A DNA stretch of 64,000 nt from an uncultured Clostridia bacterium (GTDB taxonomy: Bacteria > Bacillota > Clostridia > TANB77 > CAG-508), in NCBI GenBank assembly GCA_947628825.1, contig CANRBH010000003.1, forward strand, positions 8,084 to 72,083. The letters run 5' to 3'. Position numbers and translations under genes: made by a program. Shown piece by piece: positions 5,485 to 44,954 of the stretch; position 1 is the stretch's first letter, and every line of letters starts with the position of its first letter. Under the pieces are notes generated by a model. The model worked only from the letters and a program-made list of their open reading frames with translations, did not search any database and was not told the origin of the DNA.

Positions 5485-6435
5485 TTAACCTTCCGTGGGA
5501 GTGTCAACGGCGGGAGCATCAACGGCAGTGGTAGTGATATCAGCGTTAGCATCGGCGTTTACGCCTACGAGATTGTCAAAGTCAATTTCGTCATCCTTCA
5601 GCTTACCTGCCGCATACATTCTTACGAGCTGCGCCATAACTTCTTTTGGAATAGCGATGGCCTTTGCCGCATCGGGTTCGCCGATGTAGATAGTATAGAC
5701 CTTATTGGTCATGTTCCCGTTCTCTTCCACAAATTCATATCCGAATTTTTCTTTAAGCAGAATCCTTTCACATTCAAGGAACTTGCCCTTCATCTCCTCA
5801 TTCTTTTTCCCGAAAATTCTGCAAGCTTCCTTGAAGTCGATGAAGATTTGGTCGTTCAAATGATACTTGCCGGTCTGCTGGCTCTTGATGAGAAAGATGT
5901 CATTTTTTTCGATTTCATGCAGAATGGCATAGTGGAGATTGGCGAAGACCTTGACAATTCGCAGGTTCATATCCATAGAATTCTCAGCGTCATACTCATT
6001 CCACTTTTCGTCATTCAACTTTTTTACGAGCCATTCGAGAGCATCGGCATCGGTCATTTTGAGGAACGAATCCACCATGGTTTCGGGAAGGCAGATTACG
6101 TATCTGATCATGGTCATCTCGTCGGTCTTCCGCTGGAGTTCATAATGTTTTTCATCCATCAGTAGGTAACGTTCCAACTCAAAGGCGTATTCGTAAAGTT
6201 CTTTCCCATAATTGCCAAAGTTTCCGCAGGTCTGGTAGAGCCACTGGAAGACGCCCTCATCGATATCATAGAACCCTTGTTGCTGAAGCTTGAAGTTGAA
6301 GTCAGTTTTTTCCATGACTTTCTCAATCTTTGAATGGAACTCCTCAAAAATCTTCACGATACTCGAAGGGGGATTTCTCATCATTTCGAGAAGTTTAAAA
6401 GATTGCGAACGAGCAGCAATTTGCATCTGAGACAT
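5485..6435 (-). CDS. GC-rich orphan protein, 316 aa, acidic Ala/Thr/Asp-rich C-terminal tail, function unknown
   Basis: Long ORF with AGGAGG 8 nt before the ATG. Codon usage (ACC, GGC, CTC, AAG, GCC) is unlike the neighbours. The line at 5521 counts 29/60 G+C, against 20/60 in an alr line. Confidence 0.75.
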   Translation of the reverse strand: MSQMQIAARSQSFKLLEMMRNPPSSIVKIFEEFHSKIEKVMEKTDFNFKLQQQGFYDIDEGVFQWLYQTCGNFGNYGKELYEYAFELERYLLMDEKHYELQRKTDEMTMIRYVICLPETMVDSFLKMTDADALEWLVKKLNDEKWNEYDAENSMDMNLRIVKVFANLHYAILHEIEKNDIFLIKSQQTGKYHLNDQIFIDFKEACRIFGKKNEEMKGKFLECERILLKEKFGYEFVEENGNMTNKVYTIYIGEPDAAKAIAIPKEVMAQLVRMYAAGKLKDDEIDFDNLVGVNADANADITTTAVDAPAVDTPTEG

Positions 6436-6529
6436 CTGTTCTTACCTCCTAAATATGTGCGGAATGTTACTACAGTAACTTTCCTTTTGTCTACGAGTTG
6501 AGTCGTATTGGCTCAGCTCACTATTTATT

Positions 6530-6558
6530 ATTATACCATACTTTACATAATTTTGCAA
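6530..6558 (-). promoter_or_regulatory. sigma-A-type promoter, TTGCAA-17 nt-TATAAT with TGG upstream of the -10
   Basis: Read on the minus strand: CTTGCAAAATTATGTAAAGTATGGTATAAT. An about 87-nt leader runs to the ATG at 6435. Confidence 0.6.
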
Positions 6559-42782: not shown

Positions 42783-42871
42783 TATATTACCTTTGAAATA
42801 AAAAAATAACGCTATTTTAAGGATTTTAAGATAGTGTTATTTTTTATAGAAAATTTAAAATTTGAATAGTC

Positions 42872-42900
42872 TTGCAATATTATGTAAATTGTGGTATAAT
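42872..42900 (+). promoter_or_regulatory. sigma-A-type promoter, TTGCAA-17 nt-TATAAT with TGG upstream of the -10
   Basis: CTTGCAATATTATGTAAATTGTGGTATAAT is 27/30 identical to the promoter at 6530-6559 read on the minus strand. Confidence 0.65.
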
Positions 42901-42986
42901 TAAAAATGATGAATCGTTTTACTCCGTTTCATCATTCGGAAGCAACAACATTGGGATGCGTGATTACGCAGGGAGGAGATCAAATC

Positions 42987-43358
42987 ATGAATAGACTTGC
43001 TGGTTTAATCGCAAACGGAACCATCACTGTCGAGGAGCTTGCTAACGCACAGGATTTGATTGAACGTGCGAAGTTGGTTACTCAAGGGCTTGAAGCCTGC
43101 AAAAAAACGCTTGCTTTCCCGCTTGGAGTCAAGGAAATCAACTGTTATTCCTATATCGATTCCGCTGGAGAGTATGAAGCTTGGGGGCAATGCACAATCG
43201 ATGGTATCTTCACCTGTTACTGCAACTGGGGTGGAAACCATGTGATCGGCAGATGCAACCTTGCAAATTTTGCAGAAGTTTTCACGGCTTTTGACAACGA
43301 CGAGTTTGCATCTGACTTGCAGAGGTTCCTGCTTCAGCAGATAAAAAAAGCAAGTTGA
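42987..43358 (+). CDS. GC-rich orphan protein, 123 aa, six Cys in the central 56 aa, function unknown
   Basis: Start placed at the ATG at 42987 (GGGAGGAG 8 nt upstream), which makes the upstream 27 codons of the track ORF leader sequence. The line at 43141 counts 28/60 G+C. Confidence 0.65.
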   Translation: MNRLAGLIANGTITVEELANAQDLIERAKLVTQGLEACKKTLAFPLGVKEINCYSYIDSAGEYEAWGQCTIDGIFTCYCNWGGNHVIGRCNLANFAEVFTAFDNDEFASDLQRFLLQQIKKAS

Positions 43359-43366
43359 GCTTCGTA

Positions 43367-43402
43367 GAGTAACCCACGGTATAACAACCGTGGGTTTACT
43401 CT
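43367..43402. terminator. GC-rich terminator shared by convergent genes
   Basis: GAGTAACCCACGG-tataacaa-CCGTGGGTTTACTC, followed by TATTTATTT. Confidence 0.75.
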
Positions 43403-43408
43403 ATTTAT

Positions 43409-43987
43409 TTATAATTTTCTATTAAATTTATTATTTTTAAAATATAGCCCATCCCCTTTTTCTGTCCAAAATGGTATAAGAGCATTTGGAACTTTAATGC
43501 TACCATTTTCATAACTTAATATACTATAATTATTTTCTTTAGATTGAATTTTAAATATAGTGTTTGAATCAATATTAAGTATATTGCTTTCTTTAATAAA
43601 GTCTTCTTGTATTTTCTTAAATTCCTTAATATCTACTAAGCTGTCTAAAAACTTTTCAGTAAGTTCTTTCTCTATAACATACTTCCCATTTTCATATTTT
43701 AAAATAGTATCATTTCCTATTTTATCTAAAAGATTTTTTGATATATCCTTTTCTTCAAAAACTTTATTTGTTTTTGTATCTTGCAAAAATACGCTATCTA
43801 TTCCCATATCTACTACTTGATATAGGTTTCCTTCTTCTTTTAAATTAGTTACATTTTTGCTGTTTTGATTGCTTTTGTTATTTTGATTATTTTTTTGCAA
43901 ACTTCCAGATAATTCTTTTATAAAGTTTTGAACAAATCCATTTTCTTTAGTTCCATTAAATAAATTATTAAATAATTCTAATCCCAA
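43409..43987 (-). CDS. hypothetical protein, Asn/Lys-rich
   Basis: ORF track 192 aa. No motif recognised. Confidence 0.5.
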   Translation of the reverse strand: MGLELFNNLFNGTKENGFVQNFIKELSGSLQKNNQNNKSNQNSKNVTNLKEEGNLYQVVDMGIDSVFLQDTKTNKVFEEKDISKNLLDKIGNDTILKYENGKYVIEKELTEKFLDSLVDIKEFKKIQEDFIKESNILNIDSNTIFKIQSKENNYSILSYENGSIKVPNALIPFWTEKGDGLYFKNNKFNRKL

Positions 43988-44096
43988 TAATATTACACTC
44001 CTTACTTTAAATTTATATCATTTTTAATTGGTATAATTATACAATTTTGTTTTTAAATTTTCAATACAAGAATTTATTTTTAATCTTCTCATGCTA

Positions 44097-44954
44097 TTAC
44101 TTTTTCACTTTCTGGCTTTCTCCTGTGCTATAATCTATATTTATATTTGGATGTACATTGTACACATATACATTGAAACAAACTCCCTTTCCATTATCTT
44201 CTACTGAATAGCCTTCCATTTCTACACCACTTGCAAGTAAATTATTTTCTTTAAATATTGGTGTAACTCTGTATAATACATGAGCAGATCCATTTTCTTT
44301 TATATATTCTGCTACTTTATTTTCAAAAGGCAACATTCCAGAAACATTAAAATATCTTGTTCCAGTAATTAAATTCAATTCATTATCATCTTCATCAGAT
44401 AATTGATATCCTATTAAATGACATCTATTATATAAGTATTCTCCATCATATTTCTTTTGTATCCACCCAGTAGGTTTTACTGAACTTATATCCCCTCTTT
44501 CATCCCCATCAGATGGCATTGTTTCTTTACATATATTTGCATAAGCTACTCCGCATCTTCCTAAATCATCTAAATCACTATATTTTTCAAATACTTCTGT
44601 TGTATAGTCTTGTTCATTAAAGTATGGAATATTATTGTTTACCTCTACATAAATTTCACCTGAATAATCTGGAATGTCAATTAGGCTACTGTAGTTTGAA
44701 ACTTTATTATTAATGTTACTACCATCGGAAACTTCTTTATTTATATTATTATTATCAGATATTTTATTACTATCTTGAATACTATTAAAATACCTTAGTC
44801 CCAAAATAATAATTACAACAATAACTGCTGTTATAGCTTTATCTAATCCATTATTTTTTCTTCTACTCATTTTCTTGCTTTTAATTGTCCTTTCTTTTGT
44901 CTTTTTAATTCTTCTTCTATCTTTATTTCTATGTGGTTCTTCTTTATTCTTCAT
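44097..44954 (-). CDS. membrane-anchored DNA/RNA non-specific endonuclease (EndA / DNA-entry nuclease-like)
   Basis: RCHLIGYQLSDEDDNELNLITGTRYFNVSGMLPFENKVAEYI matches the EndA-type motif. One TM helix after a basic N-terminus. Confidence 0.75.
   Translation of the reverse strand: MKNKEEPHRNKDRRRIKKTKERTIKSKKMSRRKNNGLDKAITAVIVVIIILGLRYFNSIQDSNKISDNNNINKEVSDGSNINNKVSNYSSLIDIPDYSGEIYVEVNNNIPYFNEQDYTTEVFEKYSDLDDLGRCGVAYANICKETMPSDGDERGDISSVKPTGWIQKKYDGEYLYNRCHLIGYQLSDEDDNELNLITGTRYFNVSGMLPFENKVAEYIKENGSAHVLYRVTPIFKENNLLASGVEMEGYSVEDNGKGVCFNVYVYNVHPNINIDYSTGESQKVKK

Follow-up and report, generated by a model that had tools for sequence, protein, structure and literature searches.

A moron-like single-gene cassette carrying a previously undescribed family of small proteins in uncultured gut Clostridia

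Background

We analyze a short G+C-rich gene cassette located in a 64,000-nucleotide (nt) stretch of DNA from an uncultured Clostridia bacterium (GenBank assembly GCA_947628825.1, contig CANRBH010000003.1, positions 8,084 to 72,083 of the forward strand), recovered from a rabbit-gut metagenome. The whole stretch is referred to here as the window, and positions follow its 64-kb numbering; L and G numbers (such as L006, L055 or G032) designate homologue loci and genomes. The cassette, hereafter cassette 3, lies immediately downstream of a type I ATP-binding cassette (ABC) exporter gene and comprises one open reading frame (ORF) for a cysteine-rich protein of 123 amino acids (aa), flanked by its own promoter, leader and terminator. 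An earlier interpretation made from the letters and translated ORFs of the window (the sequence-only reading) had described it as a self-contained single-gene cassette of foreign composition and had raised the hypothesis of a secreted or modified peptide with an N-terminal helix as leader, while allowing that the adjacency to the exporter might be accidental. Our results uphold the description of the cassette, side with an accidental adjacency and lead us to regard as probable that cassette 3 is an autonomous, horizontally exchanged and transcribed single-gene unit, encoding a small cytoplasmic protein unrelated to the exporter.

Organization of the transcription unit

The elements of the cassette are listed in Table 1. 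The promoter, with its extended -10-like TGG, was found where the sequence-only reading had placed it, matching 10 of 12 hexamer positions in a promoter scan with the TG present. Its spacer contains the 8-mer TTATGTAA at 42880-42887, 7 nt ahead of the -10 hexamer, and the promoter layout is retained in homologue loci. The promoter is located 3′ of a terminator belonging to the exporter, a hairpin of -18.7 kcal/mol (z = -5.7) that none of 200 shuffled sequences equals in folding energy and that separates the two transcription units. At its other end the cassette is closed by an intrinsic terminator of -26.1 kcal/mol (z = -8.3), also detected by a terminator scan.

Under the sequence-only reading, the leader would not exist if translation began at an upstream ATG in the same frame. 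That ATG, at 42906, lies only 6 nt past the -10 hexamer and has no ribosome-binding site. Because it falls at or before the transcription start, because a ribosome-binding site precedes 42987 and because nearly all homologues measure 121-129 aa, we assign the start codon to 42987, and the leader is real.

Both hairpins that had been read in the roughly 80-nt leader are present, the second of them just 5′ of the Shine-Dalgarno (SD) sequence, in which GGAGG is invariant among aligned homologue leaders. Taken whole, the leader shows no more folding stability than shuffled sequence does (z = 0.09), so support is limited to these two local hairpins. Rfam yielded no gathering-score match across the window, and an E-value scan of 42850-43420 returned only chance-level matches (E >= 0.9). 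The 5′-proximal hairpin has an energy of -10.3 kcal/mol (z = -2.6), and L006, L014 and L024 have a counterpart that shares its loop motif, as does L051 in weaker form. The energy of the pre-SD hairpin is by itself unremarkable (z = 0.25). Across 11 homologue leaders, with stems reading GCGT, GCAC, GGGC, GTGC, GGAC, GGCT and GGCA, 97.7% of the cells are paired, three of the four pairs show compensatory changes, and the covariation score is reached by none of 500 shuffles; the segments compared were chosen by eye, and the hairpin is found in only about half of the distinct leaders.

As far as sequence can indicate, both hairpins are most likely elements that stabilize the mRNA and tune translation initiation. 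In Firmicutes, 5′ mRNA stabilizers include the leader hairpins of ermC and aprE and the STAB-SD of cryIIIA. Cassette 3 resembles them in having a hairpin a few nt from the predicted 5′ end and a structured element beside a strong SD in a leader of about 80 nt. It differs in that its pre-SD hairpin has only 4-5 bp and its loop motif UUUACUCC no known counterpart, and in that its elements are known from sequence alone.

Transcription is evidenced by homologue L038, which is represented by contigs of 413-448 nt in four gut metatranscriptomes from two studies, with one contig in each. These contigs cover only L038:2936-3388; they begin 17 nt or more past the -10 hexamer and end at the foot of the terminator hairpin or just short of it, with a depth of 6-25 over the cassette versus 0-5 over its flanks. 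Contig depth is a rough measure, and the boundaries fit the predicted unit. The copy in the window appeared in no RNA run. The RNA of the homologue supports the cassette being an actively transcribed, discrete unit.

The encoded protein and its family

The ORF encodes the 123-aa protein quoted in the sequence-only reading, with a mass of 13.6 kDa, an isoelectric point of 4.75, a single histidine (H85) and six cysteines (38, 53, 69, 77, 79 and 90) as had been counted, spanning 53 rather than 56 residues. A search of 5.8 billion proteins returned 80 relatives at 55-82% identity, nearly all of 121-129 aa, none of them named or carrying a Pfam domain, and only 59 clusters, almost all of them single domains of 120-140 aa and two of them tandem duplications, emerged when 1.84 billion cluster representatives were searched with a profile. 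The core motifs are GEY..WG and NWGG[ND]H. Copies differ by a nonsynonymous divergence (dN) of 0.15-0.3 with saturated synonymous sites, giving a dN/dS ratio (omega) of about 0.14, and in the DNA alignment the invariant columns fall mostly on codon positions 1 and 2. The ORF is a real gene under selection.

AlphaFold2, run on a 78-sequence alignment, models the protein as one compact domain with a mean predicted local distance difference test score (pLDDT) of 95.5 and a predicted template-modelling score (pTM) of 0.85. Two N-terminal helices (residues 3-10 and 16-41), in agreement with the helical N-terminal third noted earlier, are followed by a four-stranded beta-meander (50-57, 64-70, 74-79 and 85-91) and two C-terminal helices (95-101 and 105-122). 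Invariant residues range from L24 to L115, C-terminal helices included. No signal peptide or membrane segment was detected by hydropathy (maximum Kyte-Doolittle value over 19 residues, 0.73) or in the modelled N-terminus, which is helix-packed. Searches of Pfam, NCBIfam (E <= 1), PHROGs and PADLOC and a sequence profile search of the PDB gave no match, and Foldseek found no fold neighbour, with best E-values of 0.12 in the PDB and 0.0099 in BFVD (TM-score 0.41). These results strongly support a compact, soluble, acidic cytoplasmic alpha/beta protein over a peptide precursor, and the family is previously undescribed.

All 78 close homologues have C38, C53 and H85, and at least 90% of them retain C77 and C90, with C69 and C79 varying freely. 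Distant members bearing NWGG (P0121, P0116 and P0132) keep the GEY and NWGG motifs and have one cysteine or none; the cysteines are not family-defining. A further distant relative, from another family of the same order (L011:1501-1773, minus strand, equal to G032:C6:46308-46580), keeps a GEY and NWWGG core, but its N-terminal part is interrupted by in-frame TGA codons, making it either a pseudogene or a gene in which TGA is read differently.

Distribution, genomic context and mobility

The gene is carried by 12 of 185,579 GTDB species, all of them metagenome-assembled genomes (MAGs) of uncultured Clostridia from gut samples, and by 20 further metagenome contigs; within the genus of the window's host, only one of 25 species has it. 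The hosts are uncultured Clostridia with small, AT-rich genomes, living in the gut of humans, pigs and rabbits. Every distinct homologue context differs. Neighbours of mobile or defence type include an Imm33-family gene with an AbiEi/AbiEii pair (L003), a tyrosine integrase, a reverse transcriptase, a WYL regulator and a penicillin-binding protein with Fic. Housekeeping contexts comprise rplI-dnaB on one side with gatCAB on the other, a position after rplL, NUDIX with prfA, tsaE with lepA, and rho; the remaining contexts feature a PAPS-reductase/DUF3440 protein and a UvrA-like protein.

On one contig (L055:1-5954; ENA contig NODE_3612) the family gene occupies a cargo position among genes for a Bro-N protein, a Mob_Pre relaxase, a TnpW-like protein (matching under the Pfam cut-off) and a large serine recombinase with DUF4368, and is preceded by a G+C-rich stretch of 280 nt devoid of ORFs. 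We take this gene layout to be that of a mobilizable transposon of the Tn4451/Tn4453 type. The clostridial elements Tn4451 and Tn4453 encode the large serine recombinase TnpX, the Mob/Pre protein TnpZ and TnpW. The likeness, in relaxase, TnpW-like protein and serine recombinase, is confined to L055, whereas the window copy and most other copies adjoin neither a recombinase nor a relaxase. For the window copy, neither a large serine recombinase nor a Mob/Pre relaxase occurs within 4 kb, and it is flanked by neither inverted nor direct repeats, nor by att sites or a recombinase.

Allelic variation at a fixed site is seen in the gatB-linked clade (L006, L016 and L037-L043), where the cassette sits between rplI-dnaB and gatB. 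L006 and L043 match at 100% identity over a segment that reaches at least 323 nt ahead of the ATG and about 210 nt beyond the stop codon; further on, in gatB, their identity is 82%. L016 and L006 share flanks 91-96% identical versus a coding sequence only 85% identical. Read from these alignments, the discordant divergence of cassette and flanks indicates probable recombinational allele exchange at a fixed locus.

At the locus in the window, the cassette junctions are identical in four sequencing runs of the source sample. In same-genus genomes the synteny of an HU gene, a nuclease gene and a gene for a 192-aa protein holds and breaks exactly at the cassette side. Contigs of other gut metagenomes, aligned to the locus, produced noisy cross-matches to ABC domains and nothing informative about the junctions. 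Taken together, contexts and linkage strongly support cassette 3 as a horizontally exchanged accessory gene of cargo type, found both at unrelated chromosomal sites and on mobile elements.

The nuclease and its neighbour occupy 43409-44954 on the minus strand and encode a membrane-anchored Endonuclea_NS_2 nuclease of 285 aa followed by the 192-aa protein, which has only a weak DUF3006 match. The pair and the upstream HU gene are conserved in two same-genus genomes, which suggests a nuclease-partner pair, the partner perhaps an inhibitor, unrelated to cassette 3.

Base composition

The genome (1.37 Mb) has a G+C content of 27.7%, and the interval 42872-43410 one of 44-45%, versus 21-27% on both flanks. 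The G+C content at third codon positions (GC3) of the gene is 0.48 versus a genome mean of 0.147, at the 99.7th percentile of 1,103 ORFs. Ribosomal-protein and elongation-factor genes have a GC3 of 0.127, and the codon usage of the cassette fits this set worse than that of 98% of ORFs, its log-likelihood ratio standing at the 2nd percentile; adaptation to high expression was rejected as a cause on both counts, and the poor fit identifies the G+C content of the cassette as foreign.

The raised G+C content is a property of the family. Among 24-26 distinct copies it reaches 0.37-0.48 (GC3 0.31-0.56) with flanks of 0.22-0.35, and it holds also for the copy on the AT-rich mobilizable element. The mean over the family climbs from 0.21 in the promoter to 0.31 in the leader and 0.42 in the coding sequence, the rise starting at the transcription start; in the window copy the leader has 0.44 versus 0.20 for the promoter. 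CGG makes up 12 of the 105 arginine codons of the family. No G+C-rich donor lineage is visible in databases, and with synonymous divergence saturated a simple recent import does not explain the composition well. Candidate explanations are selection acting at the level of the mRNA, gene conversion with a GC bias tied to frequent recombination, and an unsampled reservoir. Nothing relevant to this compositional puzzle or to the promoter 8-mer was found in the literature.

Discussion

The combined evidence describes cassette 3 as a moron-like, horizontally mobile single-gene unit that carries a new family of small proteins. Phage morons, described for lambdoid phages, are independent promoter-gene-terminator units inserted among prophage genes. 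Cassette 3 is like them in being a single gene of distinct composition with its own promoter and terminator, placed between unrelated genes and, judging by homologue RNA, independently transcribed. It is unlike them in lying outside any prophage, its flanks being an ABC exporter and a chromosomal operon that relatives also keep, and in belonging to a family absent from viral and phage records.

In the mechanism that we propose, a sigma-A promoter that looks constitutive and has an extended -10 would drive an mRNA of about 500 nt, which the leader hairpins may protect while adjusting translation initiation and which the strong intrinsic terminator would end. The invariant polar and aromatic residues of the product cluster in the beta1-beta2 loop (D58, G61, E62, Y63, W66 and G67) and the beta3-beta4 loop (N80, W81, G82, G83 and H85). 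Going by strand topology and not by coordinates, both loops would lie on the same edge of the meander sheet and form one pocket, which might bind a conserved small ligand or a conserved target. We tentatively put forward, as a possibility well short of even chances that leans on the structural model, that the product acts as a stand-alone binding protein, either a sponge for a ligand or an inhibitor of a conserved target. We favour such a role because the protein is small and acidic, evolves under strong purifying selection, is autonomously expressed and patchily spread, and frequently has neighbours of mobile or defence type; an enzyme of core metabolism is not thought likely. A sponge or inhibitor could confer an advantage in conflicts involving phages, mobile elements or competitors. 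Small phage proteins of this kind include the sponges and inhibitors Tad1, Tad2 and Acb2 and the DNA mimics Ocr and ArdA. By analogy, the cassette product would share with them its small size, acidity, stand-alone nature, strong expression, mobility and a conserved aromatic and polar cluster; it differs in having no sequence or fold similarity in the PDB and no phage association, and the comparison is one of analogy only.

Several observations weigh against this overall interpretation of cassette 3. No homologue is named and no fold neighbour exists in the PDB or BFVD, and the pocket is derived from strand topology. The RNA evidence consists of assembled contigs of a homologue and not of this genome. 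Around half of the contexts consist of ordinary housekeeping genes, and linkage to mobile elements comes from a single contig together with the integrase, reverse transcriptase, AbiE, WYL and Fic genes found as neighbours. The family was not found in phage, plasmid or viral-contig records, which comprised 2.9 million viral contigs, 50,697 phage records and phage and plasmid collections searched with tblastn. The identity between L006 and L043 could reflect a chimeric, low-coverage metagenome contig (L043). Finally, no clean empty site was recovered in same-genus genomes when sought through the downstream 192-aa gene, because synteny with these relatives ends at the position of the cassette.

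The annotation that the locus most readily invites is that of a secreted bacteriocin or a precursor of a ribosomally synthesized and post-translationally modified peptide (RiPP), in which the helix would serve as leader, the cysteine-rich part as core and the ABC transporter as exporter. In RiPP precursors a conserved leader and a Gly-Gly type cleavage site are followed by a variable core peptide, and class II bacteriocins have double-glycine leaders of 15-30 residues that end in GG or GA, with dedicated C39-ABC transporters for export. RiPP precursors of the Nif11 and NHLP types and class II bacteriocins resemble the cassette product in being small cysteine-containing proteins with a helical N-terminus and an ABC exporter as neighbour; here the gene lies directly 3′ of a type I exporter, six cysteines fall within 53 residues, and an ITVEEL stretch in the N-terminus loosely resembles Nif11 leaders. 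The peptide hypothesis nevertheless fails each test that was run. A search of Pfam and NCBIfam for leader families (Nif11, PF07862; NHLP) gave no match at E <= 1, and the same holds for bacteriocin families. The exporter, which has its own terminator, contains ABC_membrane and ABC_tran domains only, confirming the earlier observation that it has no C39 peptidase. No GG occurs within the first 80 residues, and no Gly-Gly cleavage motif follows the first helix. In about 20 distinct homologue contexts no transporter or maturation enzyme (radical SAM, cyclodehydratase or LanM) adjoins the gene; the sequence-only reading would have abandoned the hypothesis for homologues never found beside such genes and clearly cytoplasmic domains of known function, and the former was found while no known cytoplasmic function was. 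What is conserved is a globular domain, end to end, in one confidently modelled unit, and distant members dispense with cysteines. The position beside the exporter is a coincidence, the bacteriocin or RiPP annotation is tempting but wrong, and we judge a peptide precursor very improbable.

The remaining alternatives account for other features of the cassette. A metal-binding or redox-sensing Cys/His protein (zinc, iron or a thiol switch) with a stress or regulatory role would suit the anaerobic hosts, the cysteines and histidine retained among the close homologues and the knuckle-like spacing C77-x-C79-x5-H85-x4-C90. Against such a role, no set of four ligands is invariant, since C69 and C79 vary freely, the distant NWGG members keep one cysteine at most, the strand register of the model would place C77 and C90 on opposite faces of the sheet, and no zinc-ribbon or Fe-S family matches; we consider it unlikely. 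Similar doubt, slightly deeper, attaches to an orphan immunity protein or antitoxin directed against one specific toxin, delivered by competitors or encoded elsewhere. Small size, acidity, cytoplasmic location, a strong promoter and a patchy distribution are what such a protein would show, the L003 copy adjoins the Imm33-family gene and AbiEi/AbiEii pair, and a secreted-type nuclease gene lies 0.7 kb away in the window. Yet no cognate toxin gene recurs beside homologues, no immunity or defence profile in Pfam or PADLOC matches, and the nuclease retains its own downstream partner gene in relatives that have no cassette; moreover, the identities and omega of the family amount to high conservation, whereas immunity proteins usually diversify fast. 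Finally, the island might be a structured non-coding RNA, or an artefact of assembly or contamination, with the ORF incidental to it, as its foreign composition and the frequent occurrence of RNA genes in G+C-rich islands of AT-rich genomes could suggest. This is refuted by the codon-position pattern of substitution, third positions being saturated and the protein conserved, and is further opposed by the lack of an Rfam match and of whole-leader structure, by junctions that recur in four runs of the source sample and by the finding of the family in MAGs of 12 independent species as well as on 20 metagenome contigs, leaving it a negligible chance.

With the tempting bacteriocin or RiPP annotation removed, what takes its place is a defined target, a conserved and transcribed family with a confident model and no fold neighbour in the PDB or BFVD. 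Stand-alone mobile genes are a recurrent source of new anti-phage, anti-defence and interbacterial-immunity functions. The maintained synonymous G+C content and the shared promoter 8-mer described below are relevant to the persistence and control of foreign genes where genomes are extremely AT-rich and, if functional, would add to the value of the cassette.

A shared promoter motif and other genes of foreign composition

Of 25 distinct family loci, 14 have a pseudo-palindromic TTAYRTAA, in either orientation, at 6-8 nt ahead of the -10 hexamer. In the genome of the window itself, the exact 9-mer form of this motif, TTATGTAAA or its reverse complement, occupies the spacer between the -35 and -10 hexamers of 11 of 324 promoter-led ORFs, cassette 1 of the window among them (Table 1). 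The 11 motif-led ORFs have a median GC3 of 0.285 versus 0.144 for the rest (Mann-Whitney p = 1.6e-6), and seven of the nine motif-led proteins tested have no Pfam domain, so that the 9-mer marks a set of orphan genes of foreign composition. The 8-mer may be an operator or just a sign of shared origin. An extended scenario, which we regard as a long shot, would unite these observations in a dispersed set of cargo genes placed under a common regulator by a TTAYRTAA operator, with a synonymous G+C content of about 0.4, in genomes of about 0.15, actively maintained by mRNA selection or GC-biased conversion; its members would spread from promoter to terminator by recombination, sometimes on Tn4451-like elements, and cassette 3 would contribute to it a ligand sponge or inhibitor of new fold acting in conflict between bacteria or with phages or mobile elements.

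Motif-led genes include a DEAH helicase and two paralogous proteins of 500-559 aa with cysteine-rich N-termini and hydrophobic C-terminal halves. Cassette 1 (5485-6558, minus strand) is a 316-aa ORF with a GC3 of 0.56. Its promoter matches that of cassette 3 at 26 of 29 positions. A search of 5.8 billion proteins returned no homologue of its product, and cassette 1 is missing from every one of the 12 genomes with cassette 3; the two are independent cargo. Beyond the three cassettes of the window, about ten ORFs of the same genome have a GC3 of 0.34-0.6 and form a dispersed, compositionally foreign set (Table 1).

Table 1. Coordinates of the cassette 3 elements, of the neighbouring exporter terminator and of related features elsewhere in the genome
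Feature	Position	Strand	Description
Sigma-A-type promoter	42872-42900	+	TTGCAA 42872-42877; 17-nt spacer; TATAAT 42895-42900; TG-extended -10 (TGG)
5′ untranslated leader	42907-42986	+	About 80 nt; start point predicted from the -10 hexamer
5′-proximal hairpin	42905-42936	+	ATGATGAA (42906-42913) pairs with TTCATCAT (42928-42935); loop motif UUUACUCC
Pre-SD hairpin	42957-42970	+	GCGT-gatt-ACGC at 42958-42969 plus closing U-A pair; directly 5′ of SD
Shine-Dalgarno sequence	42971-42978	+	GGGAGGAG; 8 nt 5′ of ATG (42987)
ORF	42987-43358	+	123 codons
Intrinsic terminator	43364-43410	+	17-bp G+C-rich stem 43364-43404, then U-rich tail
Terminator of ABC exporter	42801-42852	+	Outside the cassette; 20-bp hairpin 42801-42845 plus U-tract
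Promoters with the 9-mer	C1:69148, C1:80764, C3:50962, C3:14633, C4:48855, C7:15756, C12:28032, C18:12015, C19:801, C29:1761, C43:7594		9-mer or its reverse complement in the -35/-10 spacer
High-GC3 ORFs	C4:47010-48383, C14:18767-20491, C5:15618-17300, C23:12502-13491, C20:15171-15611, C52:5087-5998		Outside the window's three cassettes

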